From: Escherichia phage ESCO5
Strand: one strand, 5' to 3'
DNA length: 64,000 nucleotides
Sequence record: NC_047776.2
Position numbers and translations under genes: made by a program. The notes beneath the pieces were generated by a model that saw only the letters and a list, made by a program, of their open reading frames with translations, did no database searches and was not told the DNA's origin. Shown piece by piece: positions 557 to 64,000 of this stretch (position 1 is its first letter; each line of letters begins with the position of its first letter).

Positions 557-577
557 ATATCTCACTTAGAGGTACTC

Positions 578-841
578 ATGGTTAAAGAGAAAAACGGTTT
601 TAAAAAATTTATTCGCGGAATGTTCTGCACTTACCCCGGCAACGGGGTAAGCTCTACGAAAGTCTGGAACGCTGTAGGCATGTCGGTTATGACAGGCATG
701 TTTATCTTTTTAGGAATAGAAAAAGAAATTCCTGAATGGATGGGTTGGGCTTTTGTTTTCATGATAACCCCTTCTCGCCTCATGAAAAATCTTATTGATT
801 TACGTTGGGGCAGATCACAATCTACCAAAGAGGATGACTAA
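578..841 (+). CDS. hypothetical small protein, hydrophobic core
   Basis: 87-aa ORF with AGAGG upstream of the ATG; stop overlaps the next start. Confidence 0.4.
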   Translation: MVKEKNGFKKFIRGMFCTYPGNGVSSTKVWNAVGMSVMTGMFIFLGIEKEIPEWMGWAFVFMITPSRLMKNLIDLRWGRSQSTKEDD

Positions 842-2328: not shown

Positions 2329-2330
2329 AA

Positions 2331-2960
2331 ATGGCAGTGAGTGTTGACCATGTAACAACTTGGGCCAGTATCAATGAAGATGTTAAAAACCTTCTGATTG
2401 AAGATTTTAAATCTTCTCCTAACATTGTCAAGCTCCTCTACATCGTATCCAGTGAAAAGCAAAAGATAGATCAGGCAATGATCTATCTTGCTAAACACCG
2501 CTTGATCTCCACAGCCACAGGCAAATACCTAGATATCTTAGGAGAAGAAATGGGGATCGAACGTAATGGCTCTGATGATGAAGAGTATAGAACAATATTA
2601 AAAATCAGGGCTTACCGCGTAGCCTCATCGGGGACTCGTGGTGACATAATTGATATCTTCGCCCGTTTCACAGGAACAGAGCGTGAAACGCTTAATACTT
2701 ACGTAGGTTTGAATAAAACCTTTGATGTGTTTTTCTACAACCTGTGTCTTCAATCTGATCAAGCTTTAGAGCAGTTGCTAAGTGTTTTCCCTATTATTAG
2801 TAGCTACCGTCTTGGAGCAAAAGCAGGATCAGCTTTTGGTTTTAGTTCTTATTATGCTGCCAAACCGCCTCATGGTATTGGTGGTTTAGGTTCCCTGTAC
2901 ATGGAATCTACTGGGGATGAAACAGGACGCATGTGTACGCTTCTCAAGCAAATAGATTAA
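2331..2960 (+). CDS. baseplate/tail protein (gpI-like, tentative)
   Basis: 209-aa ORF directly after the gpJ-like gene; context-based call. Confidence 0.4.
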   Translation: MAVSVDHVTTWASINEDVKNLLIEDFKSSPNIVKLLYIVSSEKQKIDQAMIYLAKHRLISTATGKYLDILGEEMGIERNGSDDEEYRTILKIRAYRVASSGTRGDIIDIFARFTGTERETLNTYVGLNKTFDVFFYNLCLQSDQALEQLLSVFPIISSYRLGAKAGSAFGFSSYYAAKPPHGIGGLGSLYMESTGDETGRMCTLLKQID

Positions 2961-2969
2961 GGAGTTTAA

Positions 2970-4031
2970 ATGGCGAAGCCAATATATTATCCTGACTGGG
3001 CTACACAAACTGTAACGCTCCCAGGAACTTTAAACACAAACAAAATTAGACCTAAAGAAACCATCCGCACAATTGGTATGGATTATGGTCAAATCATGAC
3101 TTGCGAAGAAATGAACTGGATTCTTAATAATATCGGTTTATGGATTCGCTATTTGGTGGATGACTTTCTTCCAACTTTACCTGATACTTACTTGCCTTTA
3201 ATTGGAACTAAGATTACAATGGCAGGTGATGCTACTGGTGAGGCTACTTGGAATGGTAATAAAGAAGTTACTTTATCTATCCAAGTTCAAGATAATAGTC
3301 ATAATCACTTGTCGGCAAACATTACAGATGCCACTAGTTCAACAGTAACACCAAACGTGTTGGTAAAACGTGATGCAGGTGGTGCTATTTACGGTGGTGA
3401 TATTTATGTTAATGGCACTTCCACAACAGATCCTGCAACACTGTTCTTCAAAAACTTTGCAGGACAAACGAATGGTGAGATTTCTGCCGAGTATCAAAGC
3501 GGAGGTCAGCTTTACATCTATCGTAGAAATCCTAGCACAGGTAGTGTATCGGCAGGTGTTCGTTTATATGATGCAGGTTATGTTCTAATAGATAATCCAA
3601 GATCAAACAGTGGACAAGACACTTCTAACGGAAATGCTTTAGTTCGTTTAGATTATCTGAACTCTCGTTTGACTTCCCTTCAGAATACATTGCAGACGAA
3701 TATTAACACTGTTCAAAACAACTTGAATAATGTTAACAACAACCTCTCTTCTCGTATAAACAATGTAGAAAGTAATCATCAAAGTCAGATTACAAATAAC
3801 TACAACTATGCTAACGGAACCTTTGTAAGAGATATTCGTTATACTAGCCAAGGTGTGTATTATCCACCAGGGAACGAGGTTTCTTGGACTTATATCTGTT
3901 CTTCTGGTTATGTTCTTTCTGGTATTATCGTACAGGAAACAGGACGTAGCTCTGCGGATAACATCGGTGGGGTTTACTTCAAACGCCTCCAGCGCAACGT
4001 TAACGGAAACTGGTACGATATTGGAGGCTAA
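2970..4031 (+). CDS. tail fibre protein
   Basis: 353 aa with N/Q-rich heptad-like segment (NTVQNNLNNVNNNLSSRINNVESN) and Gly/Ser/Thr-rich C-terminal part; sits in the fibre gene block. Confidence 0.5.
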   Translation: MAKPIYYPDWATQTVTLPGTLNTNKIRPKETIRTIGMDYGQIMTCEEMNWILNNIGLWIRYLVDDFLPTLPDTYLPLIGTKITMAGDATGEATWNGNKEVTLSIQVQDNSHNHLSANITDATSSTVTPNVLVKRDAGGAIYGGDIYVNGTSTTDPATLFFKNFAGQTNGEISAEYQSGGQLYIYRRNPSTGSVSAGVRLYDAGYVLIDNPRSNSGQDTSNGNALVRLDYLNSRLTSLQNTLQTNINTVQNNLNNVNNNLSSRINNVESNHQSQITNNYNYANGTFVRDIRYTSQGVYYPPGNEVSWTYICSSGYVLSGIIVQETGRSSADNIGGVYFKRLQRNVNGNWYDIGG

Positions 4032-4577
4032 ATGATATTTACAAACTTTAAAAAATATATTCCTGAAGACCCTGAACTAAAAGAATTGGTAGAAGCAGAG
4101 AACATTCTTTTTCTTCGTTGCGATCAAGGTTACGATTGGTATGATTTACGTAGCACAGAATTCAATAACGATAAAATGAAAGTCGTTTTTGATGATCAAA
4201 ATCGTATTGTGTTTTGGAATACTGATCCTACACTACTTTGCCCTGAAGATCTTTCTATAGCACAAGTAGACTTTAACATAGATACTTTTGAGGATATTAG
4301 GAACAAGGTTCTGGATTTAGAAACCTTAACTCTTAAGAATAAAGAGTATTCCCGTGAAGAGTTGATGACACAAGCTAGTGCAAAAATTCGCTCTTTACAA
4401 GAAACAGCGGTAGCACTTATAACACCTTTACAGTATGCTAAAGATTTAGAAATGGCTACTGAAGACGAATTAGCTTATCTTAAAAATCTTCAAGTTTATG
4501 TAGTTAAACTAAATCGTGTTCCGCTTCAAAAAGACTATCCTTACGCTATAGATTGGCCTACATTACCGACAGAATAA
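4032..4577 (+). CDS. hypothetical protein, possible tail fibre assembly factor
   Basis: 181-aa ORF immediately after the fibre gene with overlapping stop/start (TAAATG); context only. Confidence 0.35.
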   Translation: MIFTNFKKYIPEDPELKELVEAENILFLRCDQGYDWYDLRSTEFNNDKMKVVFDDQNRIVFWNTDPTLLCPEDLSIAQVDFNIDTFEDIRNKVLDLETLTLKNKEYSREELMTQASAKIRSLQETAVALITPLQYAKDLEMATEDELAYLKNLQVYVVKLNRVPLQKDYPYAIDWPTLPTE

Positions 4578-4586
4578 GGGATCACT

Positions 4587-4922
4587 ATGGAATTTCAAGA
4601 AGCATGGGGACTTGCAAAGGATGCAATAATCCCTTTAATCGGAGTCATCTGGTTCTTTTTCAAACAAAAAATGGATAAATTCGGCTCTGATCTTGAGGAA
4701 ATGGAGGAGAAAAGTCGAGAGCTAGAGAAGAAGTTGGTCTTTGTTGAATCAACTTATGCAACTAAAGCCGAACTTACCCAGATGCTAAATCAAATTAACT
4801 CTACATTAATGGCAAATAATAACACTCTTGAGCAAAAAATTGAAAAGATTATGGACCTCAAGAATGCGACTATCCAAATGATGCTAGATGACATAGTTAA
4901 ACGTACACAGAATAAGGGGTAA
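4587..4922 (+). CDS. hypothetical membrane-anchored coiled-coil protein
   Basis: 111 aa; N-terminal hydrophobic helix (IIPLIGVIWFFF) followed by a predicted coiled coil. Confidence 0.45.
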   Translation: MEFQEAWGLAKDAIIPLIGVIWFFFKQKMDKFGSDLEEMEEKSRELEKKLVFVESTYATKAELTQMLNQINSTLMANNNTLEQKIEKIMDLKNATIQMMLDDIVKRTQNKG

Positions 4923-4925
4923 TTA

Positions 4926-7900
4926 ATGGCAACATTCCCAACATATCCAGCAACGTCTCTCGAACAGGGCGTAGACCTGGTTATTTTCTCATCTAACCAA
5001 CTCCATGATGTTATTAATGGAAGTGCTACAGAGAGTATTGAAACAGAATCAGGGTTGATACCAACCCTGAGAAAATCCCTTGTTGACAACTTTTTCTTTA
5101 AAAGCCCATTGGATTGGGCGCAAGGCACAAACGAAACAGTTTTTAACCAACTACGTTATTTTCAGAATGGGGTATTGAGCGGTTATTATTATGCTCCTAA
5201 TGCTACATTGGTAAACCCAATTCCTATGCAAGGGACTCCAGTAGGAGATAACAACTGGGTATTGTGGGGACTGAAGACAGAACAACTAGCAACAGAAGTC
5301 ACCCCTTGGGTATATTCTGGTGCAACTGGTTATGAAACAGTAATCAGTCCTCCCTACATCTTTGATAGTGCTATTGTTACAATCAATGGTGTTATTCAGG
5401 TTCTGGGAGAAGCTTTCCGCATAGAAGATAGTAAAATCATTTTATCTGAACCTTTGGGACATGATCCTGCAACAGGACTGCCAAACAAGCTTTTTGCCTA
5501 TATTGGTAAAATCGTAGCTTCCGCAGATACAGATCCTAACTTAGAAAACCGTCTTGTCAGTTTAGAAACAAAAACTGAAGAACTGACAGAAAACATGGAT
5601 AAAGTACCTTTACAAACTATTGCTCGTAAATACGGTTTGTTGGATGACGAAGTAGCTTACGCAACAGCGGGTCAATCATTAACAGGGATTAAAGCTCTGT
5701 ATGATCCGGTAGCACAATCTTCCTACACATTGCCTCCTAACATCACAGGGACTTTAACATCTTTGTCTGTTTCTGGAGTAATGACTTATTCTGGCGGATC
5801 TGTAGATCTTTCTGCATTAGCTGTTGAACGTGGACAGTTTGTTCATTTGCCTACAAGCTTTGGTAATAATGTAACTCTGACAGCTAAAAATCAGACGATT
5901 GGGCGTGGCGCTGGTCGCTATCGTTGGGCGGGAAGTTTACCAAAAAGTATTTTAGCTTCTGATACATTGGAAACAAGTGGTGGATTAGGTCCAAATGCAT
6001 GGGTTCTAACTAATACAGAAGGACTGTTAACCCCTCGTGGTGGAACATACAACGATTTATTCGATGTTGTCCGCTTATCAGAATTTGCTAACAATACAAC
6101 TACCTATACCACACCAGAAGCAGCTTTCCAGGCGGCACTGTTAGCAGCAAAAGCTTCGAAAAGTAAGATTCTCGACGCTTACGGTTGTGATATGACTTTC
6201 ACGACAAGCTCTTTTGATATTCAAGATATCACTTTGCGTGGGGGTGTGTTCCGTGGTCAACGCGATTATCGTGTGCAAAATGCTACAGTAGAAGGCACAA
6301 CTTTCCGTAACTCTCGTGTTATGTATTGGGGTGGTGCTGTGCGCATGTTCGATTGTTTGTGGGACGGTGCTCCTCGCGCAGGTCAAGTTGGTAGCTTGGT
6401 ATTCCAAGGAAACCCAATATCAGGTACTTTTGAAATTGATAATTGTACTTTTAAAAACGGGTTATATGGCATCCTTCAACAAGGAACAGGGGAACCAGTA
6501 ACACGCGGTGTCTTCCGTAACCTTACCTTCATGGACATGCAAGGTGATGCAATAGAACTGAACGTCATCAATAAACATTATGATGATGGTTGTGTGATTG
6601 AGAATATTTACCTGTCTAATATTGATGGGACTAACGCTCCTATTCCTCTGTCCAACTGGGGTATCGGTATTGGTGTGGCTGGTAAAGGACCATATGGTTA
6701 CGGAATTCCTGATGATCAATATTGCAAGAATATTACAATTCGTAACGTTTTTGCAAAACGTTGTCGTCAGATTGTCCACGTAGAAGTTGGTCGTAATATT
6801 TCTATCGAAAACATTCATGGCGATCCAGATCAAACTGTATCTGTTGGGACAGGTTTGGCAACTGGCGCAGTTGTAATGTATGGAAGTAAAGATTTTACGA
6901 TTGATGGTGTTTACGGAGAGCCTAAAACAGACGGTAGCACACTTGCAAGTAATATCCGTATGATTTATTTGGAGTGGGGAACTAACGCAGTTCTGGATGA
7001 AGAGGGCAATCCGGTAGTTCCGGCACAGGGCAGACCTTCAAACCCATGCTTTAACTATTCTGTTCGTAACATTCACACCAAAACTGGGCGTGTTTTTGCA
7101 GGAGTTTCCGCTGGGCCAGGTTATGAAAACAGAGTCAGCTTTGAGAATATCCATTGTGCTGCGTTGCAGTTGTTCGGTGTAGCTTCTTGGCTTTCAATGT
7201 CTAACATCACCTGTAATATCTTTGATTGTGTTGGTCAACCTGAATCTGGTCCAGGGACATTTTATGATGGATTCTTCCGTAGAGAAAAATCTGTTCTTGA
7301 GATGGTTAACGTAAACTGTTACCCAGATGGCAAGACTATGGTTACTGGTCGCCCACAGTGGAGCCGTTGCCGTTACTCTGATATTCATCGTGTCAACTGT
7401 AATGTTGAAGCTAATATGTATACCAATATCGCAGGTGGTATTGGAGCTATTGTAGGGACAACTGGCAAAGTTTATTACTTAGAGCCTAACCCTAGCCGAA
7501 ACATTGATGGGATGCATTTCCCAACAGGGAAGGAGTTTGACAAAGGGGATATGATAGTCAAAGCGGATAATACGTTCTTCCTTGTAACAACAAGTGGGGC
7601 ATACATTCCAGATATCCCAGCTTTCGGTATTCGAGCTACACAAGCAGGAGATACCTTCCTGACACAGAACTTGACTCCTAATGGGACAGCAACAAACGCT
7701 TCTTGGTTGTATCACTATCCTCTGTCAGCAGGAACACGTATCCGTATTCCTGGTGCTGGTGTAGGTGGAGCAGATTTGGACACAGTTATTACTCGTGCAC
7801 CTTATCAAGATAATGATACGTGGACTAACCCAGTTAAAATAGACATTGCAGATCCAATTGTAACGCCTACGAGTGCTGGAGTTAGAATCAAAACCATACC

Positions 7901-7979
7901 TAACGATTCTAGTAATGTTTCTGTAGGTAATACTGCGGTTATTCGCCCAACACCAGTGGTAGATGTGCCAACAACCTAA
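4926..7979 (+). CDS. tailspike / tail fibre with parallel beta-helix (possible depolymerase)
   Basis: 1017 aa; recurring rung-like motifs (IENIHGD, VRNIHTK, FENIHCA, NITIRNV) typical of pectate-lyase-fold tailspikes. Confidence 0.6.
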   Translation: MATFPTYPATSLEQGVDLVIFSSNQLHDVINGSATESIETESGLIPTLRKSLVDNFFFKSPLDWAQGTNETVFNQLRYFQNGVLSGYYYAPNATLVNPIPMQGTPVGDNNWVLWGLKTEQLATEVTPWVYSGATGYETVISPPYIFDSAIVTINGVIQVLGEAFRIEDSKIILSEPLGHDPATGLPNKLFAYIGKIVASADTDPNLENRLVSLETKTEELTENMDKVPLQTIARKYGLLDDEVAYATAGQSLTGIKALYDPVAQSSYTLPPNITGTLTSLSVSGVMTYSGGSVDLSALAVERGQFVHLPTSFGNNVTLTAKNQTIGRGAGRYRWAGSLPKSILASDTLETSGGLGPNAWVLTNTEGLLTPRGGTYNDLFDVVRLSEFANNTTTYTTPEAAFQAALLAAKASKSKILDAYGCDMTFTTSSFDIQDITLRGGVFRGQRDYRVQNATVEGTTFRNSRVMYWGGAVRMFDCLWDGAPRAGQVGSLVFQGNPISGTFEIDNCTFKNGLYGILQQGTGEPVTRGVFRNLTFMDMQGDAIELNVINKHYDDGCVIENIYLSNIDGTNAPIPLSNWGIGIGVAGKGPYGYGIPDDQYCKNITIRNVFAKRCRQIVHVEVGRNISIENIHGDPDQTVSVGTGLATGAVVMYGSKDFTIDGVYGEPKTDGSTLASNIRMIYLEWGTNAVLDEEGNPVVPAQGRPSNPCFNYSVRNIHTKTGRVFAGVSAGPGYENRVSFENIHCAALQLFGVASWLSMSNITCNIFDCVGQPESGPGTFYDGFFRREKSVLEMVNVNCYPDGKTMVTGRPQWSRCRYSDIHRVNCNVEANMYTNIAGGIGAIVGTTGKVYYLEPNPSRNIDGMHFPTGKEFDKGDMIVKADNTFFLVTTSGAYIPDIPAFGIRATQAGDTFLTQNLTPNGTATNASWLYHYPLSAGTRIRIPGAGVGGADLDTVITRAPYQDNDTWTNPVKIDIADPIVTPTSAGVRIKTIPNDSSNVSVGNTAVIRPTPVVDVPTT

Positions 7980-8043
7980 TGGAAATAGAGAGGGGGATTC
8001 CCCCTCTTCTTCCAATAGAATGGTCTAATAATAGGAGAGATAA

Positions 8044-10068
8044 ATGAATTTAACAAGACCTAATAGTGCGATAGCCGATCTAGTAGAAGCTACTTATCGA
8101 AAACGTCGCAGTTTTGAGGCAGGTTTTACATTACGTAATTCCCGTGAAGTTTTGCTGTTAGCGGCAGAAGGGAATTATTACCAATGGAAAGGAACTTTTC
8201 CTAAAGTAGTTCCAGCAAACTCTACGCCAGCCACCACAGGTGGTATTTCTTCCCTTGCATGGCAAAGTGTTGGGACCGCTGATGATATAGCAATTATCAA
8301 TGCCAAGTTTACGGCAATGCAGCAACAGATTGATGATCTGTCGGAAACAATACCTGAAGCTGGTAAATCGGCTTATCAGATCGCACTTGATAATGGTTTT
8401 GTTGGAACAGAAGCACAATGGCTTGCTTCTTTGAAAGGGGATACTGGTGCTCAACTTAATATTAAAGGATCATTAGCAAGCACTAGTGAACTACCATCTA
8501 CAGGTAACGTAGCAGGTGATGGTTATATTGTAGGAGATGTAATCTACGCTTGGGATGGGGCTGTTTGGAAACTTATCTCTTCTCTTGGGCCAGAAGGGAA
8601 ATCAGCTTACGAGGTATGGTTAGCAGATGGTAATACAGGATCTGTTTATGACTTTCTTGCCTCTATAAAAGGTGATAAAGGAGACGTTGGTCCTACAGGT
8701 CCACAGGGTGCACCTGGTGTCAACGCTAATGGTTTTGATTACCGTGGAGATTTGCCTTCTACAAGTAACTTACCACAACCTAACTCTGAAAACGTAAGCC
8801 AAGCTTATTCTATTAATGGTAATCTTTATGTCTCTAATGGGACAGCTTGGGTCAACATGGGTAATATTGTTGGTCCTCAAGGTCCACAAGGTGAGGCAGG
8901 TAAAGACGGTCTAGATGGAACAGATGGAGACGAAGGGAAATCTGCATATCAAAGTTGGCTGGATGCTGGTAATGAAGGGACAGAAGTAGATTTTATTGCC
9001 TCACTTAAAGGTCCAAAAGGAGACAAGGGTGATCAAGGAGAGCGAGGTCCACAAGGTGAACTAGGTCCACAAGGACCAGTGGGTGCAACAGGATCAGGTT
9101 TAGAGATTATCGGGGTTCTGAACAGCGAAGCTGAACTTCCTCCTACTGGAGAAGTAGGTGATGCATATAAAATTAATAATGATTTGTATGTTTGGGTTCA
9201 AGATGCTACAGAATGGATGAATGTAGGCAGTCTTGGAGGAACATCAATTACAGCTAAAGGTCATGTTCCGAACAGTGAAGCTCTCCCTGTTTATAATAAC
9301 TACGGTGATGCCTATTTAACTGAAGACACTAGTAATCTTTACATCTATACCTACGATCAAGACACCAATTCCGCATCTTTTGTTGACATGGGAAGTATTA
9401 AAGGCGACAAAGGTGAAAAAGGGGATAAAGGAGATAAGGGTGATCCTGGAACAAACGGAACCAACGGTACTGATGGGACCAACGGTAAGGACGGCGCACA
9501 GTGGTTTGTAGCAACAACTAATCCAGTCACAGGAGACGGTGTTATCAATGATTACGCCTTCAATACTACCACTGGAGCAGTATTTAAGAAAACAGATTCT
9601 TCTACGTGGACACTTATAGGAACTCTTCCTAGTATACCAGAAGCCCCTCAAGACGGCTTGACGTATGGTCGTTCTGATGGAAACTGGATCGAAATATCAG
9701 GATCAGATCCTACGGAAGCTATAACACCAACTAGAGTTACAGCAGGTTTCATGGAACTTGAAACAACTACTGCCAACTCTGGAGCATCTTGGACTCCTTC
9801 TGGAACTTCCAATATGTATGTTGTTACAGTAACTGACGCTCTGACAGTTGGAGCATGGCCTGGTGTCACTGGCTCTACAAAACCTAAAGCGTTTTCAGCA
9901 ATGATTTATTTGATTCAAGATACAACGGGACACACGGTTACACTAGATGCGTCTTATGGAGCACTAAATGATACAGAAATAGCAACTACTGCTAACGCAG
10001 TAACAATTTTGCAATTAACGTATCCTGGTGTGGGTGATATCGTGGACATGGTTGTTGTAACACGATAA
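8044..10068 (+). CDS. tail fibre with collagen-like Gly-X-Y segments
   Basis: 674 aa; several G-X-Y runs (GPTGPQGAPG; GPQGPQGEAGKDGLDGTDGDEGK; GDKGEKGDKGDKGDPGTNGTNGTDGTNGKDG) and three GKSAY(Q/E)-W/A-L-D/A-GN modules. Confidence 0.7.
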   Translation: MNLTRPNSAIADLVEATYRKRRSFEAGFTLRNSREVLLLAAEGNYYQWKGTFPKVVPANSTPATTGGISSLAWQSVGTADDIAIINAKFTAMQQQIDDLSETIPEAGKSAYQIALDNGFVGTEAQWLASLKGDTGAQLNIKGSLASTSELPSTGNVAGDGYIVGDVIYAWDGAVWKLISSLGPEGKSAYEVWLADGNTGSVYDFLASIKGDKGDVGPTGPQGAPGVNANGFDYRGDLPSTSNLPQPNSENVSQAYSINGNLYVSNGTAWVNMGNIVGPQGPQGEAGKDGLDGTDGDEGKSAYQSWLDAGNEGTEVDFIASLKGPKGDKGDQGERGPQGELGPQGPVGATGSGLEIIGVLNSEAELPPTGEVGDAYKINNDLYVWVQDATEWMNVGSLGGTSITAKGHVPNSEALPVYNNYGDAYLTEDTSNLYIYTYDQDTNSASFVDMGSIKGDKGEKGDKGDKGDPGTNGTNGTDGTNGKDGAQWFVATTNPVTGDGVINDYAFNTTTGAVFKKTDSSTWTLIGTLPSIPEAPQDGLTYGRSDGNWIEISGSDPTEAITPTRVTAGFMELETTTANSGASWTPSGTSNMYVVTVTDALTVGAWPGVTGSTKPKAFSAMIYLIQDTTGHTVTLDASYGALNDTEIATTANAVTILQLTYPGVGDIVDMVVVTR

Positions 10069-10070
10069 CA

Positions 10071-10096
10071 GAAGCCCCGAAAGGGGCTTTCTTTTT
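10071..10096 (+). terminator. rho-independent terminator
   Basis: agccccgaaaggggct hairpin followed by ttcttttt. Confidence 0.6.
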
Positions 10097-10109
10097 ATGG
10101 AGGGTTTAA

Positions 10110-12782
10110 ATGTTTCCAATTCCAATATTTACTATTATGACCAGCACTGGTGTCGTTCCTCTGCCAGCAGGTATTGTTAAAAAAGTAATCACTCTAGATT
10201 ACCCAGATAATGCTGGCAATTCTAATAGCAGTTTAGCAATTTTGCTTAATGATGGTAGATTGTTTACTCAAGGCGCAAACCTTTTTGGTGAGATTGCAGA
10301 TGGAACTCGTAGTGCACGATTCAATAATTTCCACTTAGCTTCTACTGTAGTAGCGGATGTGTTTACCGCAGATCGTTGTTTTGTTATTAAAACTAACAGT
10401 GGGGGATGGCAATATTCAGGATTGACAGCAGGGTTGGTAGGATCTATAGCAGCAGGTGGTACGGATGCATGTGTAACTACTTGGACCAGCTTTCCATCTG
10501 TAATAACAGGGACTATCTCTTTAGCCAATCTTAAAGAGGTTAAGGGAGGATATAACAACACTCTCTGGTTGATGAATAGTGGTGTTCTTTATGGATCAGG
10601 TCAAAACACAGTAGGCAGTTTAGGTGCAAGTACTACTAACGAAGTTTCTACTCCTCGTCAGATAACAAGTGCAGCAGTTGCTTTTGATGCAGGTTACAAC
10701 CAATGCTCTTATGTCAACAATGTGGGAACCTTGCGTGTTTGTGGGGCTAGTAAAGGTTTAGCAGGTAATAATAACACAACAACAGCTTTTGTCAATGCCA
10801 AGATATCCGCTACTGAAACAGTGTATGTCAAAGATTACATCAATACAGTTTCCCAGACAATAGTTGTAGGAGATACCTCCGGTGGCACGGGTACAGTAAA
10901 CTACTTATATGTTAGATCTAATACAGAAACAACCTACACTAAACTGGACACCTTTGCAGCAGGTTTCTCAACATGGAAATTTCCACCAAGCCGCCACTCT
11001 TTTTTCGTTGGGATCAATAATTCCTTGTGGGCTATTGGTAAGAACTACACTGCAAACTTAGGTTTGGGGTATGATTCTGCGAGCGGAGATCCACTCCAAG
11101 TGGGAAAACCAGTTAAACCTGAAGGAGTGGGTTCCTGGGATATAAACAAGCTCACAAGCGTTCATACACTGAATATGGATGTTACTAACCAATTAGGTTA
11201 TCAAGGAACCTTTTTCGTTTATAATGGAGATATGTATTATTCAGGTATTTGGAAAGATGGGAAAGCCTCGTATCTGTTCAATAGTGGTCTAAACTATAAT
11301 AAATTCACACCAATAGCAAGCTCCGTGATTACAGGGGATGTTCTGGCAACTGGCTTAACTACAGATTCTTTAGGAATTTGTATTGTAGGTGGAACTAAAC
11401 AGTTGACACATTCTGTTAGCCCAGAAGGAGGTAAACTTTTCAATATTAAATACACTTCTTCTGCCCCTGCAAACATGACAATATCATCTACTGGTTTAAT
11501 GACTTTCCATGCAGAAGGTGGTTTTGATGCAGGTATGACAGCCTTAAACGCTGAAGGAACAATTTTATCAGATACCTCTGGAGGATATGCTTCAACATTG
11601 AGTGTTTACACCCCTAGCTTATCTGCGATGGATGTAGGAACAACACAAACAATGGTAGCAGAAATAACACCAACAGGAGCAGCAAGCTTACCTGATATGG
11701 TTGTTGAGTATACAACTACAGATCCTAATGTTGCTACAGTAGATCCTACAACTGGTGTAATAACTGGTGTTGGTGATGGTGGTTGTAGGATTGGTTGCAC
11801 AGCTACGTATCAAGGTGTTGTTACCGCTTCTGATAGTTCTTATTTAACGGTGAATGCTGTTGCGGGAAAGGAGTTAGCTCCATCTCCGAGTAGTAGTTTA
11901 ACGGTTCTAAACGGATATTTCAACCACTCGGCAGATGGGGCAATTACGTTCCCAACTTTATCGGGTACTGTTACACCAGCTAACTTTGTAGTTAAGGTGG
12001 ATGACGTTGTAGTTCCTTCAAGTAAAGTAATATTTAGAAACAAAGCTTTCTCTACAGTGGATAGTTATCCAGCAGGAGAATATAGACTGGCTATTGAATT
12101 TGCAAGTGCTTCAGTAGTTAATAGTGTGGAAGTGTCTATGGAAGCAAACCCAAGTCTTTTAGAACTTTGGGGCGGTAATAGAATCAGTTATTCTACAAGC
12201 CCAGCCTCACAATTCTTAAAAGGTTGTGCTAACTTAAGACGAATAACTTCTGATTGTTTTAGTAACACATCTTACACCGGAACATCTATAAGCGGTATCT
12301 TCTCTGGCTGCACAAGTTTGACAGCTATCCCTGAAGGATTATTCAGTGATGCTTTATTTCCTTCAATGACAACAATGTCAAGCACGTTTGAAGGTTGTAC
12401 ATCTTTAACATCTATTCCTTCAGATTTATTTAAGAATCTGTCAAAAGTTACAAGATATTCTTACACCTTTAAAGATTGCACCTCTCTTGCAGAAGTTCCA
12501 GCAGGAATGTTTGATAATATTCCAACGAAAGTGACCTCTTTAACAGCTACATTCCAAGGTTGTTTAGGACTTACAGATTTTAATAAGATCTTTAATGACA
12601 ACCCAGGGTTAACTGTTTGTGGTAAACGTGGAGCATTATCTTCTTTCTTTAGTGGATGCACAAATCTTACAGGAACAGGAACAACATTAACAAATACATT
12701 AGGCGGAGTAGCTAATAGTTACCTATTCAGGTATTGCACAAAACTTTCTGATTATAACAACATTCCTTCCGGTTATAAATAA
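10110..12782 (+). CDS. tail fibre with Ig-like segment and C-terminal leucine-rich repeats
   Basis: 890 aa; Big2-like stretch (TTDPNVATVDPTTGVITGV) and six repeats of F-x-G-C-T-S-L-T-x-I-P-x-x-L-F near the C-terminus. Confidence 0.6.
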   Translation: MFPIPIFTIMTSTGVVPLPAGIVKKVITLDYPDNAGNSNSSLAILLNDGRLFTQGANLFGEIADGTRSARFNNFHLASTVVADVFTADRCFVIKTNSGGWQYSGLTAGLVGSIAAGGTDACVTTWTSFPSVITGTISLANLKEVKGGYNNTLWLMNSGVLYGSGQNTVGSLGASTTNEVSTPRQITSAAVAFDAGYNQCSYVNNVGTLRVCGASKGLAGNNNTTTAFVNAKISATETVYVKDYINTVSQTIVVGDTSGGTGTVNYLYVRSNTETTYTKLDTFAAGFSTWKFPPSRHSFFVGINNSLWAIGKNYTANLGLGYDSASGDPLQVGKPVKPEGVGSWDINKLTSVHTLNMDVTNQLGYQGTFFVYNGDMYYSGIWKDGKASYLFNSGLNYNKFTPIASSVITGDVLATGLTTDSLGICIVGGTKQLTHSVSPEGGKLFNIKYTSSAPANMTISSTGLMTFHAEGGFDAGMTALNAEGTILSDTSGGYASTLSVYTPSLSAMDVGTTQTMVAEITPTGAASLPDMVVEYTTTDPNVATVDPTTGVITGVGDGGCRIGCTATYQGVVTASDSSYLTVNAVAGKELAPSPSSSLTVLNGYFNHSADGAITFPTLSGTVTPANFVVKVDDVVVPSSKVIFRNKAFSTVDSYPAGEYRLAIEFASASVVNSVEVSMEANPSLLELWGGNRISYSTSPASQFLKGCANLRRITSDCFSNTSYTGTSISGIFSGCTSLTAIPEGLFSDALFPSMTTMSSTFEGCTSLTSIPSDLFKNLSKVTRYSYTFKDCTSLAEVPAGMFDNIPTKVTSLTATFQGCLGLTDFNKIFNDNPGLTVCGKRGALSSFFSGCTNLTGTGTTLTNTLGGVANSYLFRYCTKLSDYNNIPSGYK

Positions 12783-53891: not shown

Positions 53892-54071
53892 ATGGCACGT
53901 TTAGCAGACCATGAAATCTTTAAACCTATTCTGAACCACTATGATGAACTTAAGGCAGTGTTGGATTGTTATAGAGAGGATGAAGAACGTTTGGAAGTGA
54001 ATCTTAAGATAGTTCTGATGAAAGCTTTTCAAGACGGGCAAGCTGAAGTCTTAGGAGGCATGAAAAAATGA
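53892..54071 (+). CDS. hypothetical small protein
   Basis: Start placed at the ATG after AAGGAGA (MARLADHEIF...). Confidence 0.45.
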   Translation: MARLADHEIFKPILNHYDELKAVLDCYREDEERLEVNLKIVLMKAFQDGQAEVLGGMKK

Positions 54072-54610
54072 GAATAACTGATGAATATGTATTCTTCTTT
54101 TCACATAAAGATGTGTTTAGTAATTGGTATATTGCACCCTTTACAGAAACCGAACCAGGTTACAATCAGACATTTAATTGTGTCGAACAATACATGATGT
54201 GGCGTAAAGCTTTGCTTTTTAATGACCACAACACGGCACAGGCTATTCTGACTCATAGTTTGATACGGAAAGATGAGAAGATCCAAGCTTATTACAAACG
54301 TATGGGTAGGGCAGTGTCAGATTTTGATAACAACGTATGGGAAGAGAACCGTGAGCGTATTGTTATGCGAGGTTTATGCTTGAAATATGTACAGAATCCA
54401 GATTTGTATGCAGACTTACACCTTTACCAATACAAAACGTTTGTTGAAGCAAGTCCTTACGATAAGGTTTACGGTATTGGAATGGGAATGTATGAACCAG
54501 GGGTGCTAAATCCGGTCAACTGGAAAGGGCAAAATCTTTTAGGTAAATATCATAACAAACTGATCGAAATACTTTTCCCAGACAAAATACCGCAAAGACG
54601 ATATTTGTGA
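54068..54610 (+). CDS. NADAR-domain (YbiA-like) protein
   Basis: 180 aa; FSNW, CVEQYMMWRKALLFND and WEENRERIVMRGL align with the YbiA/NADAR pattern (FSNF ... EHYFQAQKF). Confidence 0.6.
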   Translation: MRITDEYVFFFSHKDVFSNWYIAPFTETEPGYNQTFNCVEQYMMWRKALLFNDHNTAQAILTHSLIRKDEKIQAYYKRMGRAVSDFDNNVWEENRERIVMRGLCLKYVQNPDLYADLHLYQYKTFVEASPYDKVYGIGMGMYEPGVLNPVNWKGQNLLGKYHNKLIEILFPDKIPQRRYL

Positions 54611-54852
54611 TATTTTAACTTTTTTCATTTTTAGAACAAAGGCGTCACTTTGTAGCACAGAAATAAGGCTCCTACAGCACCGTAGAGAGCCTATTATTTT
54701 GTCCTATACAAACCCTTGTCTTTTTCAGTTTGCATCACTAGGATTCGATCTGAGTGGGTTCCTGAAGGTCTGCCAATAAGATTAAAGGTTATCTCAAATT
54801 CCCACTACCTATTATCTCAAAAATCCCTCAAATTATTTAAACTTTTTAAGAA

Positions 54853-55038
54853 TTTACAAAAGTGAAAGTTGAAAACCAAAATTTAAAGTTTAGGAAAATT
54901 ATCTTAAAATGTCAGATACAAAACAAAACTCAAAAGTCAAGGAAAATTTTAAAAATTTTGCGCGCCCACAGTATTTAAAGTTTTTTTGCTTTTACAAAAA
55001 TGAAAGTACAAAAGCAAAATTTAAAGTTTACAAAAATT
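54853..55038. repeat. iteron-like imperfect direct repeats in an AT-rich non-coding region
   Basis: About 48-bp units at 54853-54900 and 54991-55038 (roughly 42 of 48 identical), with a degenerate third copy between them. Confidence 0.5.
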
Positions 55039-55050
55039 TATGCAGATGGG

Positions 55051-55166
55051 AATGAGAAGAGTTCTCATATGGAAATGCAAATGATAATGATTCGCATTTA
55101 GGTTTATAAATGAGATTGATTCTTATTTGATAAGGTAAATGATAATCATTCTCATTTAGAGAATGA
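55051..55166. promoter_or_regulatory. array of four palindromic operator-like sites, two closely matching the Fur-box 7-1-7 pattern
   Basis: ATGAGAA-gag-TTCTCAT (55052-55068); TGATAATgATTCGCA (55082-55096); aaatgagattgattcttattt (55108-55128); TGATAATcATTCTCA (55140-55154) with TCATTCTC/GAGAATGA inverted repeat; spacing about 29 bp. Confidence 0.45.
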
Positions 55167-55415
55167 CGCGCAGGGGCGGTGTTTGTCTCGCGCTCCCGTG
55201 TCCCCTCGCCATGTAATAAGAATAACAGATCCAGCCAGGAAAGCAAGCGATTATTTTATCTTTACATTTCTTTACAAATATATAGCGCCCAGCCTACCGG
55301 CGATCAACCTTCCAACCAGCGCCCTGGTATGTTAGCCCCGCCTTTACGCCGTGGGGGTGGCGCTTCCTCTTCTGTATGTAAAACAGTATAAGCCCGATCC
55401 CTGGGCTTGTCAAGA

Positions 55416-55682
55416 TTATTTTTTGTTTTCTTGCCAGGATAGGACACCTAACCAAAAATGCATATCGCCCCGCGCCCCTGGTGGGATCTTGCTTTCCCCG
55501 CCGCCACTGCAAGCCCATAAATAACCATCAGCGAACGGATCAAAGTTTTCTATTTCTTCCACCTTATGATCGCCCAGGTTGAGAACTGTTTCAACCTTTA
55601 AGCCCGTTGCGCTTGCTACCTGGTGCACCGTGCCGCCTTGCCAGCCTAATGAGTGCATAAGGTGTAATGTAGTATTCGTCAT
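55416..55682 (-). CDS. hypothetical protein in a GC-richer segment
   Basis: 88-aa ORF on the - strand with codon composition visibly GC-richer than the rest of the window; weak RBS. Confidence 0.35.
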   Translation of the reverse strand: MTNTTLHLMHSLGWQGGTVHQVASATGLKVETVLNLGDHKVEEIENFDPFADGYLWACSGGGESKIPPGARGDMHFWLGVLSWQENKK

Positions 55683-55790
55683 GGTGTCGCCCTTTCTTTG
55701 TTGTGCGCCCTGGTTGGCGCGGTAGAAAGATGATAGCCCTTTCTTTTATATATAGCAAGCAAAAAGAAAATAAAAAGATTGAAAAAGTGA

Positions 55791-55849
55791 TTGACGTTCG
55801 CCAGGTGGCGGCATAATATTTACCACGTAGGGCGGCAATGGTGCCGCTC
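55791..55849 (+). promoter_or_regulatory. promoter plus 5' stem-loop cassette
   Basis: TTGACG-N17-TAATAT then ttaccacgtaGGGCGGCAatggTGCCGCtca hairpin just downstream of the -10. Confidence 0.55.
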
Positions 55850-55868
55850 ATTATTTGGAGTTAAAATC

Positions 55869-56066
55869 ATGGCAACATTGCACATTGTGGCGAAAGCTGG
55901 ACAAATAAACGTGGTAGTAAACGGTTTTACTGAGTTCAGTCATCCCCAGGATGATCATGAAACGGTTTTATCTTTCATTGATTCTCTGTTAGAAATGGGA
56001 GTCATTACAGAAGACCAGCACGCTACAAAATGCAAGCGCGTTAATCAAATTGCAGGGATAGAATAA
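55869..56066 (+). CDS. hypothetical small early-type protein
   Basis: 65 aa from the ATG after GGAG; the track start at 55791 lies inside the promoter. Confidence 0.5.
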   Translation: MATLHIVAKAGQINVVVNGFTEFSHPQDDHETVLSFIDSLLEMGVITEDQHATKCKRVNQIAGIE

Positions 56067-56073
56067 AAAGTAT

Positions 56074-56131
56074 TGACAACAAACAACAACCTGATAAGAT
56101 GTATCACATAGGGCGGCGGAATGGTCCACCG
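56074..56131 (+). promoter_or_regulatory. promoter plus 5' stem-loop cassette
   Basis: TTGACA, -10-like TAAGAT, then atagggcggcggaatggtccaccgc hairpin; the ctgataagatgtatcacatagggcggcgga segment recurs at 57531. Confidence 0.5.
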
Positions 56132-56157
56132 CTCACAACAGAAGAGAGATTATAATC

Positions 56158-56430
56158 ATGGCATCATATAGCGCAACAATGATCGTAGCTGGCACCACTG
56201 GTAAACCTATGAGCGGTGGCGGATCTTTCGCAAATATCAACATTGACGGGCGTTTATCCCTGGACGCAGCGATCACCGTGGCGCGGGAAACATTTAAGAA
56301 AGAATGTAAATTCAATAAACAAGATTATCTCGGTTTTGCTATTGAAAAAACCGCGCGCTTTGTTGATTATAAAAGCCCGAAGATGGTTGATACTACACTA
56401 AAAGCGCAAGATGTAGCGTTTTTGCTTTAA
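56158..56430 (+). CDS. hypothetical small early-type protein
   Basis: 90-aa ORF. Confidence 0.5.
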   Translation: MASYSATMIVAGTTGKPMSGGGSFANINIDGRLSLDAAITVARETFKKECKFNKQDYLGFAIEKTARFVDYKSPKMVDTTLKAQDVAFLL

Positions 56431-56434
56431 GGCT

Positions 56435-56489
56435 TGACATTAACGAATAATTTGTTAATATGTTACATAAAGCGGGAATAGTTCCCGCT
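56435..56489 (+). promoter_or_regulatory. promoter plus 5' stem-loop cassette
   Basis: TTGACA, TTAATAT, hairpin agcgggaa-tag-ttcccgct. Confidence 0.5.
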
Positions 56490-56506
56490 ATTTGTAAGGT
56501 GGTAGA

Positions 56507-56764
56507 ATGTTTTACATCAAATTAAAAGGTCACGTGATCGCGTTCAAAGATAACGCTTTTTACAGATTAGCAAAATATGCGTTAATACATCCCCACTATG
56601 TTTATATAAGGGGGCGTGATGAAATAAATATCTTTGATCAAACAACATGCGAGAACATCGAGATCCGCAAGGTTGGCGTACGTGATTATCGTACATCTTT
56701 CTACCCTTGCAAGGATTCAGCAAGTCTTTTTAAAGTATGCCAATTGTTGAAAAAAGGTGGTTAA
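56507..56764 (+). CDS. hypothetical small early-type protein
   Basis: 85-aa ORF. Confidence 0.5.
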   Translation: MFYIKLKGHVIAFKDNAFYRLAKYALIHPHYVYIRGRDEINIFDQTTCENIEIRKVGVRDYRTSFYPCKDSASLFKVCQLLKKGG

Positions 56765-56765
56765 T

Positions 56766-57323
56766 ATGGGCCGCGAATATGTGATCCAGTCTTGGGTAAA
56801 ACATGAAGCAGATGATCCGCGCATCATTCCCGATCATCTTATCGATGAATCCACGGGATATAGCGGTGAGCAAATAGGTAACAGATTAGCACGTAGTAAC
56901 GGCAACGTAAAAGCGCGTTATGTGCGCCCTGGCTGGCTGGCAAATGGTAACGCTGATTTATCCAGTGCGGAAGATGCGAGCGACGGCGCGAAAGATAATC
57001 CTTTGTACAAAGTTGATCCGGCTTTTCGTGTCCTGGATGAATACCCCAGCAAGATAGCGGCGCTCGATCAGGCCCTGGAAAGTCAGCGCATCACCTGGAC
57101 CGCTTACAACATGGCAAAAAACGTACTTGATGGTAAATTGATTCAAGCTGAAAGAAAATTAGCCAAAATTGCAGCCATAGCCCAGGAGGAAGACGAGGAG
57201 ACAACGGAAGAGGAAGAGTACGAAGAGATCCCGCCGTTGTTGTGTGTTGATGCTTTTCCTGATTATCAGCCGACAGAGGAAGAAAAAAGGATCGCACTAG
57301 AAAACTTTGAAAATAGTCTTTGA
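56766..57323 (+). CDS. hypothetical protein with strongly acidic C-terminal region
   Basis: Start placed at the ATG after GGTGG; C-terminal EEDEETTEEEEYEEIPP. Confidence 0.5.
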   Translation: MGREYVIQSWVKHEADDPRIIPDHLIDESTGYSGEQIGNRLARSNGNVKARYVRPGWLANGNADLSSAEDASDGAKDNPLYKVDPAFRVLDEYPSKIAALDQALESQRITWTAYNMAKNVLDGKLIQAERKLAKIAAIAQEEDEETTEEEEYEEIPPLLCVDAFPDYQPTEEEKRIALENFENSL

Positions 57324-62820: not shown

Positions 62821-62834
62821 TTGACAACAAAACA

Positions 62835-62862
62835 AGGGCGCACCAAGCGCCCTTTCTTTTTG
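62835..62862 (+). terminator. rho-independent terminator
   Basis: agggcg-caccaa-gcgccct hairpin followed by ttctttttg. Confidence 0.65.
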
Positions 62863-63069
62863 CCCGAACAATGTTGATAGATTCCGCCTATGAAAAACCG
62901 ACACAGAACAAAATTGCATAATTTGCGCTATCGAGCTAATCAACCAGCAAACGAATAACCATACACCCCAGGGTTACAGGCTGTTAGAGAGCTATTTAGA
63001 GCGGTTAAAATCGATCAACAACCAACAACAAACAACCGAAAAAGGCTGTTTTCTTCCTTTCCAGTGCAA

Positions 63070-63084
63070 TGATAACCATTATCA
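63070..63084. promoter_or_regulatory. Fur-box-like 7-1-7 palindrome
   Basis: TGATAAC-C-ATTATCA matches the Fur 7-1-7 consensus (tGATAATnATTATCa) at 14 of 15 positions. Confidence 0.4.
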
Positions 63085-63139
63085 TCTACCCTTGCGTATC
63101 TATACAATATAAGTGCATAACTATAATGTTGATAATAGT

Positions 63140-63330
63140 TCGCAACAACTAACCAACCAACAACCTAAAACAATAAGCAAACTAATCATAATCAAAGGAA
63201 TAATAGCAAGATGATTGATAACGACAAACAATCAAACCATGATGAATACTAAGCAAGATAACGATAACACGACAAAACAACCAACTAACGAACAATAACA
63301 AACGAAACCATTAAAATAATAACTATTAGC
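63140..63330 (+). repeat. A+C-rich strand-skewed low-complexity region (non-coding)
   Basis: About 190 bp made almost entirely of A and C with few G or T (caacaactaaccaaccaacaacctaaaacaataagcaaac...); no ORF. Confidence 0.5.
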
Positions 63331-63480
63331 AAAATAGTGCCTGAATGAAATCATTACAAAACGAATCATTCACAGAGTCATCATTAGCACGCTATGCCGG
63401 ACACATAGCGAGCTAATAATAAGCCAACTACACCCCAACAATCATAACCATCGGTGACGGTTATTTCTTGTTACTGCGTA

Positions 63481-63499
63481 GCTTGCAATAATTGCAAGC
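63481..63499. repeat. perfect 19-bp palindrome
   Basis: gcttgcaat-a-attgcaagc. Confidence 0.6.
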
Positions 63500-63823
63500 G
63501 TAATGACGCTTACACTTATTGCGCTGGCTTATTATTAGCATTATATGTAATTACCAAGATCATAACATTAGCGCAATAACAATAATCATTGTAATGATTA
63601 TGTAAGGAAACAATTAGCATGGCAATAATTATGGGGGCAATGGGAGGATGATTATCATCATTCCGATACATTGCACACTATGCACATAATAGAATAAAAG
63701 TCAATAATTTTGGGGGCGAAATGTTACCGCCACAGGCGGGAATGTTGAGCAAGTTCTCTTAAACGTAAATAAAATCAGAAAATTCTTGATTTATTTTGGC
63801 TTTTATGTTAATAAACGTTTAAA

Positions 63824-63838
63824 TAATAATCATTCTCA
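63824..63838. promoter_or_regulatory. Fur-box-like palindrome
   Basis: TAATAAT-C-ATTCTCA, same half-site (ATTCTCA) as at 55140-55154; related sites at 63581-63601 and 63648-63663. Confidence 0.35.
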
Positions 63839-64000
63839 TATAAATAATAGTCTGCTTGTCATGAGCGGGATTAGTTGACATTGTTCCGTCATATGATGAA
63901 GTTGCCAAACCATTGATAAATAAGTGTTTGTGTGATTTATAATCAAGTGGCCCACCTTGTCGCTATGTTGGCATGAGCCTTGCATAAGTCATTGAATACG

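Follow-up and report, generated by a model that had tools for sequence, protein, structure and literature searches.

In Escherichia phage ESCO5 (NC_047776.2), positions 54611–55166 of the 64,000-nucleotide stretch analysed here, which we refer to as the window, form a non-coding region that carries an array of four palindromes resembling operators of the host regulator Fur. By sequence comparison the window is a Phapecoctavirus (phAPEC8-like) genome, and its segment 54000–56600 shares 95–98% identity with Phapecoctavirus genomes such as phAPEC8, ECML-183-2, ZCKP1 and tuntematon. No conserved open reading frame (ORF) was found in 54611–55166, where the relatives likewise annotate no gene, and the GC content of 0.295 at 54800–55199 is the minimum over the last 20 kb of the window. 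The first-pass annotation had described the region as gene-free and AT-rich, and was right on both counts. Comparison with related phages places the region in a conserved control module without genes (~54.66–55.41 kb), of which it forms the AT-rich half and which separates a terminal block of small early genes (~55.8–62.8 kb) from the rest of the genome. The features of the module and its surroundings are collected in Table 1.

The palindromes start at 55051, 55080, 55109 and 55138, in three steps of exactly 29 bp; a spacing of about 29 bp had been noted from the letters alone. The match to the Fur 7-1-7 consensus at 13 to 14 of 15 positions, claimed at the same time, is likewise correct, with one mismatch at 55140–55154 and two at 55082–55096. 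Matches to the palindrome pattern AATGAKAATNATTMTCATT with up to three mismatches number six in the window (0.34 expected), and matches to the Fur 7-1-7 consensus with up to two mismatches number five (0.69 expected). A Fur matrix derived from E. coli K-12 finds four sites of at least 20 bits in the window, compared with 0.087 per window in 300 Markov simulations. With 70% A+T in the region, and Fur boxes being AT-rich themselves, chance similarity in low-complexity DNA could be invoked. However, a count of three sites at or above 20 bits was reached in none of 2000 composition-matched simulations of the AT-rich segment (0/2000), and the sites, mostly together with their 29-bp spacing, are conserved across subfamilies despite diverged flanks. 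Simulations and conservation already refute an origin by chance, whose probability we regard as negligible.

The specificity of the array was assessed with two matrices that share no data. The first, a 19-bp palindrome with the consensus AATGATAATNATTATCATT, was obtained by expectation-maximisation from seven Fur-regulated intergenic regions of K-12, with no phage sequence included. It assigns 27.2, 23.7, 20.0 and 15.5 bits to the array, 13.1–24.2 bits to the K-12 operators and 17.4 bits to the best match of the 64-kb window outside the array and the terminal tract; site 4 outscores all seven K-12 operators on which the matrix was trained. The second is a symmetric, phage-only matrix built from 35 non-redundant phage palindromes, which was applied to four pieces of E. 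coli K-12 sequence totalling 178 kb. Nine of its eleven best K-12 matches fall at the fecI, fhuA, fecA, entC/fepB, fepA/fes, cirA and fepD/entS promoters (three of the nine at entC/fepB), and these are the classical Fur-regulated promoters of the scanned pieces. The other two are located at K-12 189590, in the map-rpsB spacer, and 2233870, in the yeiS-preT spacer (18.7 and 13.2 bits); to our knowledge, neither is a familiar Fur target.

Fur clusters are characterised by overlapping sites placed 6 bp apart (Chen et al. 2007, PMC2189734). Such a pair is present at site 2, with centres at 55083 (17.7 bits) and 55089 (23.7 bits), and the sites of phage T5 and T5-like phages are built alike. The array has in common with the operators of fhuA, fecI, fecA, cirA, fepA-fes, fepB-entC and fepD-entS the 19-bp core AATGA(T/G)AAT-N-ATT(A/C)TCATT, the overlapping partner shifted by 6 bp and the mutual recognition in the reciprocal matrix tests. 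Scoring with a Fur matrix had been proposed as a check by the first-pass annotation, and in both directions the array reaches the level of proven operators; its reading of Fur-box-like palindromes in a non-coding control region is borne out by sites that score like, or above, real E. coli operators. The matrix tests show in silico that the array sites are operator-grade by Fur specificity. Boxes for Zur and KdgR were also compared, by eye: the AAATG...CATTT flanks are common, the core is not, and Fur fits better.

Table 1. Features of the non-coding module, its flanks and the window's right end
Feature	Position	Strand	Score or remark
ORF	54068-54610	+	NADAR domain; stops just left of the region
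Terminator-like hairpin, AGGCTC...GAGCCT followed by a T-run	54665..54701		read from sequence
T5 'DRA'-type double repeat, TTGAGATAAT-N11-ATTTGAGATA	54790..54820	-	pattern match
AT-rich iteron-like direct repeats	54829..55038		72-nt unit, two copies and a partial third
Fur-like site 1, AATGAGAAGAGTTCTCATA	55051..55069		15.5 bits
Fur-like site 2, AATGATAATGATTCGCATT	55080-55098 (with partner 55074..55098)		23.7 bits
Overlapping partner of site 2, shifted by 6 bp, AATGCAAATGATAATGATT	centre 55083 (site 2: 55089)		17.7 bits
Fur-like site 3, AATGAGATTGATTCTTATT	55109..55127		20.0 bits
Fur-like site 4, AATGATAATCATTCTCATT	55138..55156		27.2 bits
Second hairpin, reusing the right half of site 4	55145-55167	-	fold of predicted leftward RNA
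GC-rich stem-loop, AUGGCG...CGUCAU	55163..55212	-	conserved; 5' end of predicted P_L RNA
Predicted sigma-70 promoter P_L, TTGCTT-16-TATTCT	55219..55246	-	-35 at 55246-55241; -10 at 55224-55219; start ~55212
CpxR-type box, GTAAA-N5-GTAAA (GTAAA-GAAAT-GTAAA); CTTTACATTTCTTTACAAA on the + strand	55260..55278	-	perfect match; box core 55261-55275
GC-rich non-coding block, CTACCGGCGATC...CTTCTGTATG	55294..55378	-	nearly invariant; long invariant runs in alignment A1
Predicted second leftward sigma-70 promoter P1, TTGACA-17-TATACT	55385..55413	-	11/12 consensus
Small ORF, 88 aa, phrog_19316	55416..55682	-	conserved; annotated in tuntematon and ASO2A
Fur-like site in terminal non-coding tract	63068..63086		21.2 bits
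First 253 bp of 329-bp direct terminal repeat	63748..64000		alignment to Schickermooser

The palindromes could also be read as RNA hairpins or as a cruciform. Among 58 unique phage sites, the two half-sites are symmetric at position ±4 in 23 cases (25.4 expected) and at ±5 in 35 cases (37.9 expected); the half-sites vary independently, therefore base pairing is not under selection and a hairpin or cruciform is rejected. In tuntematon the block with sites 3 and 4 (window 55109–55156) is inverted, with sites and spacing retained. Independent half-sites and a tolerated inversion both fit recognition by a dimeric DNA-binding protein.

Similar arrays are widespread. A BLAST search with the array, aimed at distant relatives, returned 416 phage records, and the gap between the + strand gene block and the small + strand genes is also found in Justusliebigvirus, Certrevirus, Mydovirus, Avunavirus and further contigs. 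The module was aligned over 14 lineages. In most Phapecoctavirus and Vequintavirinae-like lineages the last palindrome lies 179–185 nt from a GC-rich block, and the preceding sites follow at 29-bp steps; overall, the 29-bp step accounts for 15 of 31 adjacent spacings, distributed over Demerecviridae, Stephanstirmvirinae, Vequintavirinae and Alcyoneusvirus. These are the four unrelated groups to which the Fur-like motif is common. Alignment indicates that the array belongs to a non-coding module that has been conserved over Stephanstirmvirinae and Vequintavirinae and of which RaK2-like jumbo phages have similar parts. A scan of IMG/VR for the palindrome detected a four-site array in Klebsiella phage RaK2 (345,809 bp; 225443–225866), and K64-1 and Muenster have one likewise. 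As in the window, these Alcyoneusvirus genomes combine a four-site Fur-like array with CTTTAC-N4-CTTTAC about 140 nt further on and a small-gene block, and the tiny genes after this box, which is of the CpxR type, run rightward. In Muenster the array is located at 790–900, 0.8–0.9 kb from the left end and inside a 20,030-bp terminal repeat (a PhageTerm prediction), with the box at 1036; extra Fur-like and CpxR-type boxes occur among the early genes, and the conserved GC-rich block was not seen.

The palindrome matches listed from IMG/VR also include further uncultivated contigs with 3–9 Fur-like sites at spacings of 22–23, 34 or 37–39 bp. Several of the listed matches are single Fur-like sites at extreme contig ends, which hints at a tie to repeats or termini; many other single sites among them are uninterpretable without context.

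The closest parallel concerns phage T5. In T5-like phages, the counterpart matched by the array is a non-coding region at the terminal repeat's inner end, and the DRC repeats and palindromes E–I of T5 (AY587007, 9468–9637) are the same motif as the window array. Scored with the K-12 Fur matrix, the T5 palindromes reach 22.1, 27.2, 21.6 and 20.6 bits. The calculated shear point of the T5 first-step transfer, at 9618, falls within the bracket of palindromes E–I and DRC, with the major nick at 9661–9668 and the end of the terminal repeat at 10139 (Davison, bioRxiv 10.1101/866236). The same work lists the palindromes without a function and never mentions Fur. The T5 repeats have been described since 1987, and papers of 2023–2026 still call their role untested (PMC10644984, PMC13250531). 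In our literature search nothing was found that joins 'first step transfer' and 'Fur', and the sole mention of a 'Fur box' found for virulent coliphages concerns sitABCD on lambdoid phages. The rV5 paper draws a 'non-coding' box on which it does not comment.

Repeat Region 3 of T5 comprises palindromes E–J and the DRC, DRD and DRA repeats. Like it, the window module is non-coding and lies at the inner edge of a terminal small early-gene block. The palindrome motif is the same, identical 19-mers are common to the window and T5-like phages, and some T5-like phages have the 29-bp step; the 19-mer of site 4 recurs identically in DT57C, BIS47 and Av-05. The order of elements from the genome end also agrees, i.e., small early genes, Fur-type palindromes, lineage-specific direct repeats and the repeat known in T5 as DRA. 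The T5 DRA double repeat reads TTGAGATAAT...TTTGAGATA. A pattern taken from T5 DRA copies 2–3 matches once in the window (0.00 expected), although this pattern was picked post hoc, with both the T5 and the window sequences already seen; it also matches T5 10040–10067, phAPEC8 and ASO2A. With TRF, a 24-nt repeat in 2.1 copies was detected at 54789–54837. A scan of IMG/VR with the DRA pattern gave 73 loci, 59 of which appear to be chance matches, with no Fur-like site reaching 20 bits, while about ten, mostly on contigs of T5-like size, have Fur-like clusters nearby. In T5-like contigs, the Fur-like clusters are invariably found 5' of DRA, 400–1200 nt away. They are oriented likewise in the window, where the distance is 240–330 nt, and therefore the T5 + strand corresponds to the window minus strand.

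The differences from T5 are also clear. T5 has paired DnaA boxes, a LexA-type box and DRD repeats, which the window does not. The DnaA box TTWTNCACA has no match in 54.6–56.2 kb and five in the whole window (10.7 expected), and the DRD repeat GTGCAAATCCGAC has no window match at up to two mismatches, its place being taken by an A-rich repeat family. The T5 region is located inside a 10,139-bp terminal repeat, whereas Schickermooser, a relative of the window, has a repeat of 329 bp, and the window array adjoins a conserved GC-rich block and leftward promoters that T5 lacks. A perfect LexA-type SOS box, TACTGTATAAATATACAGTA, was observed beside the DnaA boxes of T5-like injection-stop regions, in T5 at AY587007 ~9337–9356 (palindrome D); it was identified by its agreement with the LexA consensus. 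The comparison shows in silico that a module is shared between the window and the T5 injection-stop region. Since a T5-like list of parts occurs in T5-like order, the module would be expected to act here as it does in T5. The first-pass annotation contained neither this homology nor the position at the edge of the early block, nor the adjacent promoters and CpxR-type box described below.

The position of the array relative to the genome end was deduced from Schickermooser, whose first 329 nt and last 329 nt are identical and form an exact direct terminal repeat (given as 328 bp by Korf et al. 2019; PMC6563267). The window aligns to the right end of this genome and stops 76 bp short of it, and several independent records end at or near the same place; from the alignment, therefore, the terminal repeat starts at window 63748 and the physical end is at ~64076. 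The array lies 8.9–9.0 kb (~6% of the genome) from this inferred end, with only small + strand genes in between, apart from the 88-aa minus-strand ORF. In Schickermooser the distance is ~14 kb (9%) and there are more small genes. The terminal repeat holds two Fur-like sites, one at 63822–63840 (23.7 bits) and one of 27.6 bits just past the window end. Recurrences of the half-site had been listed at 63070, 63581, 63648 and 63824: the first and last are strong, corresponding to the sites at 63068–63086 (21.2 bits) and 63822–63840, but that near 63581 is weak (13.2 bits) and that at 63648 remains below 8 bits. A site centred at 63324 (19.2 bits) was missing from that list. With Fur-like sites in the array on one side and in the terminal tract and repeat on the other, the early-gene block is thus bracketed by them. 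The non-coding tract 62821–63747 (0.9 kb), which contains the sites centred at 63077 and 63324, is strand-asymmetric, with an AT skew of +0.25, a GC skew of -0.24 and A+C-rich runs such as CAACCAACAACAAACAACC.

These positions raise the possibility of a DNA-entry checkpoint of the T5 type, in which the right end would enter first, the early block of 9–14 kb would be delivered and expressed, and entry would pause at the array, with or without Fur. The array lies ~6% (this phage) or 9% (Schickermooser) from the end, and the first-step transfer of T5 comprises 7.9% of the genome; the element order from the end is that of the T5 long terminal repeat (LTR); and in T5, phiR2-01 and Muenster the arrays are located 0.5–0.9 kb inside the inner boundary of the long terminal repeat. 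Circumstantially, Demerecviridae and Vequintavirinae are both sensitive to daunorubicin, a drug that blocks a T5-like phage after first-step transfer (PMC13250531); the common sensitivity is compatible with a common early step and proves nothing. However, the T5 stop signal itself has been assigned by position only (PMC10644984). The window is without paired DnaA boxes, DRD repeats and homologues of A1/A2, the terminal repeat measures 329 bp and not ~10 kb as in T5, and no mechanism is known through which a DNA-binding protein of the cytoplasm could stop incoming DNA. We consider such a checkpoint unlikely, and a little more so the broader proposal that Fur arrays constitute a host-factor-gated entry checkpoint common to T5-like, rV5/phAPEC8-like and RaK2-like phages. 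If that proposal were true, two-step delivery would be widespread in large virulent enterobacterial phages, and iron-loaded Fur (Fe-Fur) would be the sought host component of the T5 stop.

The high scores of the sites would also suit a decoy. After genome amplification the sites would titrate Fur and derepress host iron uptake and RyhB, to the benefit of iron-dependent phage enzymes. Phage sites outscore host operators, they are untied to a promoter and variable in number, and they are doubled within the terminal repeats of T5 and Muenster. The Fur footprint is close to 29 bp in size, so that sites at this spacing could be filled independently. Moreover, the Fur titration assay relies on derepression of the regulon by Fur boxes in multicopy (PMC2189734). 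A decoy, on the other hand, would not need the fixed register with the neighbouring conserved block that has been kept, and one to four sites per genome are few unless the copy number is very high. A decoy function is, in our opinion, rather improbable.

Operators for a phage regulator had been offered as a further reading in the first-pass annotation, and it still stands as a rival. A phage-encoded dimeric DNA-binding protein sharing the specificity of Fur, perhaps an early repressor or a factor acting in packaging or at the termini, would suit sites that adjoin physical ends and terminal-repeat boundaries, and the systematic G at ±4, a preference in which phage sites differ from E. coli Fur operators. 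It is less economical, because the same specificity would be needed in four unrelated phage groups. A BLASTP comparison of all ORFs of T5 1–11500 with those of the window detected no homologue of the T5 LTR proteins, A1/A2 included; it gave noise only, and a phage protein shared by T5 and the window as the cause of the common sites is rejected. No candidate emerged among the T5 LTR proteins, a DNA-binding domain was not detected in the flanking genes, and near-consensus Fur sequences should be bound by the abundant host Fur anyway. The occurrence of the motif in four groups, together with the lack of a T5 LTR protein homologue in the window, favours a host factor over a phage factor, and recruitment of host Fe-Fur to the array appears most likely; a phage protein is a distinctly doubtful alternative.

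The right half of the module includes two predicted promoters that point leftward, at the array. The P_L hexamers are kept in 13 lineages, with free variation in the spacer between them (TTGCAA-17-TATATT in Vequintavirinae, TTGATC-16-TATTAT, TTGATT-16-TAATAT). P1 overlaps a terminator-like hairpin that belongs to the minus-strand ORF upstream; the P1 hexamers are constant, and compensatory substitutions have altered the intervening hairpin in CR9, BIS47 and Av-05. A rightward promoter over the last site (TTGAAT-18-NAGAAT, in Vequintavirinae) was considered and dropped, as the A at position 2 of the -10 hexamer is not conserved. Promoter-like matches that touch the array are weak only (9/12), and the conserved promoters lie 60–260 nt to its right, reading towards it. 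The iron-responsive promoter/operator of the first-pass annotation can accordingly be kept in part: its Fur-like sites are there, but no convincing promoter overlaps them, and they lie 50–160 nt downstream of a conserved leftward promoter.

The predicted P_L transcript would begin with a conserved stem. Its first 83 nt fold at -27.3 kcal/mol (z = -3.1), and in alignment A2 the closing pair 19-63 of the stem is G-U in six sequences and G-C in six, while pair 18-64 is AU in five, GC in three, GU in two and AC in two. The minus strand is favoured as the transcribed one because the G-U pairs of the stem would be A-C mismatches on the + strand. The GC skew at 55200–55600 is negative, as it is in the minus-strand genes of this phage, and amounts to -0.21 in the GC-rich block. 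Both the G-U pairs and the negative skew favour leftward non-coding transcription into the array. A BLAST search with 55160–55440, which spans the GC-rich block, returned 232 phage records from Stephanstirmvirinae and Vequintavirinae. The block is not coding, because its loops have indels of 1, 2, 4 and 6 nt, and one compensatory change from A-U to G-C was found in it. The GC-rich stretch 55160–55380 is probably the leader of the leftward P1 transcript. An RNA from the + strand was also considered for the block, with a weak consensus fold and one covarying pair; the minus strand fits better, on modest evidence.

Between the two promoters lies a sequence that agrees perfectly with the motif recognised by CpxR, GTAAA-N5-6-GTAAA (PMC9600279). 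It is the only match in the window (0.03 expected), with its centre ~56 nt upstream of the predicted P_L start, and the tandem CTTTAC-N4-CTTTAC is invariant in the 14 lineages of alignment A1. In Vequintavirinae the box is 9–10 bp closer to P_L, i.e., by about one helical turn. As in CpxR-activated promoters, a perfect box stands beside the -35 hexamer of P_L, at 5–6 nt in Vequintavirinae and one turn further in Stephanstirmvirinae; given its recurrence in Muenster, the box could equally be a phage promoter element. The same type of box was observed in repeat region 1 of the T5 LTR (AY587007 5076–5094), in the pre-early promoter region, and in T5-like contigs, and the initial 3 kb of Muenster contain four such boxes (1036, 1409, 2304 and 2538).

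To the left of the array lie the AT-rich direct repeats. The two 72-nt copies, 54829–54900 and 54967–55038, are 82% identical. A 33-nt family has three copies starting at 54869, 54917 and 55007, and the partial third copy of the larger unit corresponds to 54917–54949; the sub-motif TTTACAAA occurs at 54853, 54991 and 55027. The earlier description, two to three copies of a ~48-bp repeat, holds in substance, although a unit of 72 nt, in two copies and a partial third, describes the tract better. The repeats are lineage-specific, with another repeat family at the same position in CR9 and Av-05 and DRD in T5.

Such a tract may be read as a replication origin, in which P1 and P_L transcripts would prime or open AT-rich repeats serving as iterons of a phage initiator, with Fur, and in T5 also DnaA, as accessory factors. 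In T4 oriF/oriG and in iteron plasmids, a promoter reads into an AT-rich direct-repeat tract, as in the window. The succession of promoter, G+C-rich structured leader and AT-rich repeat tract agrees with such an arrangement, and the repeats differ by lineage at a constant position, as iterons do. The T5 counterpart has paired DnaA boxes described as 'reminiscent of oriC' (Davison, bioRxiv 10.1101/866236). Unlike the T4 and plasmid origins, however, the window has repeats that are few and long (~2.5 copies of 48–72 nt), no DnaA boxes in the region, no visible initiator gene next to it and no skew signal. The neighbours encode a NADAR protein, an endonuclease and an ATPase, with no recognisable initiator domain, and the T5 origins were mapped near the genome centre, as cited by Davison (bioRxiv 10.1101/866236). 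The cumulative GC skew has its minimum at ~48.4 kb and not at the array; this turn is a strand switch that follows the direction of transcription, and an origin call from it was rejected. Of the origin-type iteron array suggested by the first-pass annotation, the AT-rich tract is present, while its ~2.5 long repeats come without DnaA boxes or a turn in GC skew, and an origin at this place seems unlikely.

The genes around the module provide no link to iron, in that none of those flanking the array in this virulent-phage DNA is iron-related. On the left, further + strand genes before 54610 encode an AAA ATPase and a CapR/T5orf172-type endonuclease. The hairpin that follows, at a position equivalent to a terminator annotated in phAPEC8 and ASO2A, likely closes this left-hand gene block and forms the left limit of the module. 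The motif TGATATTT occurs at the same border, in one copy in the window (54608–54615) and in three to four copies in CR9 and Av-05; it is also found at ~283–290 of the Schickermooser terminal repeat, directly past the last Fur-like site there. On the right, alia, BIS47 and Av-05 have a minus-strand ORF annotated at the position of the 88-aa ORF, and a long run of tiny + strand genes starts at 55869, each with promoter-like and terminator-like signals. A unit repeated before early genes at 55813–55836 and 56094–56117, consisting of a -10-like hexamer and a GGGCGGC...GCCGC hairpin, is annotated in phAPEC8 as a PHIRE 'promoter' and looks like a conserved cassette of promoter and 5' hairpin. A search of both strands of 54000–57000 against Rfam at E values up to 1 gave no match, and ARAGORN found no tRNA or tmRNA.

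Taking these observations together, we propose that the array gates leftward non-coding transcription. In an iron-replete cell, Fe-Fur dimers would load on all four sites soon after DNA entry and would form a nucleoprotein block of ~120 bp. Host RNA polymerase would start leftward non-coding transcription at P1 and P_L, both predicted from conservation, and the transcripts would run into the array, where the Fur block would stop or attenuate them before they reach the AT-rich direct repeats and DRA. The function of these repeats, be it priming, opening or a boundary, would thereby be set by the iron state of the host, and perhaps by its envelope-stress state. We rank an iron-dependent block of leftward transcription first, since it is towards the array that the conserved promoters are directed. 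We tentatively hold this Fur-gated block to be the best explanation overall, with somewhat less than half of our confidence behind it.

Several points weigh against such a block. The geometry of the array is atypical for Fur, with four separate sites at 29-bp steps where host Fur operators are contiguous runs of hexamers; host operators also overlap the promoter they repress, and the overlap with -35 and -10 elements that is usual in Fur repression is absent here, the sites being located at ~+50 to +160 of P_L, itself a predicted promoter. In the window P_L agrees with the consensus at only 8 of 12 positions and was missed by a simple promoter scan. At ±4, 66% of phage sites carry G and 63% of K-12 sites carry T, a bias that may point to an additional constraint or to another protein, although G at ±4 does occur in the fecI and fhuA operators, and the K-12 matrix was built on seven regions only. 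The number of sites ranges from one, in Av-05 and one other contig, to at least five in T5-like phages, which is loose for a precise roadblock. Furthermore, Fur-like sites are also present in the 329-bp terminal repeat and 0.8 kb from the physical end of Muenster, and a purely transcriptional role leaves those near genome ends unexplained. Occupancy by Fur is, in all these phages, inferred from sequence.

Fur operators and T5 repeats are each already known. In the literature we could not find the identity of the Fur box with the T5 repeat, a boundary module in four groups of virulent phages, or its pairing with a CpxR-type box. Reading the T5 palindromes as operator-grade Fur boxes, which are present in three other groups as well, provides a concrete and cheaply testable hypothesis for an old T5 puzzle. 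More generally, it would suggest a non-coding boundary module through which unrelated virulent phages are wired to global regulators of the host, the candidates being Fur, a CpxR-type box and, in T5, also LexA- and DnaA-type boxes. If this is true, a lytic phage would read the iron, envelope and DNA status of its host at entry. The phAPEC8, rV5, PVP-SE1, T5-like and RaK2-like phages concerned are therapy candidates, used in host environments that are iron-limited.

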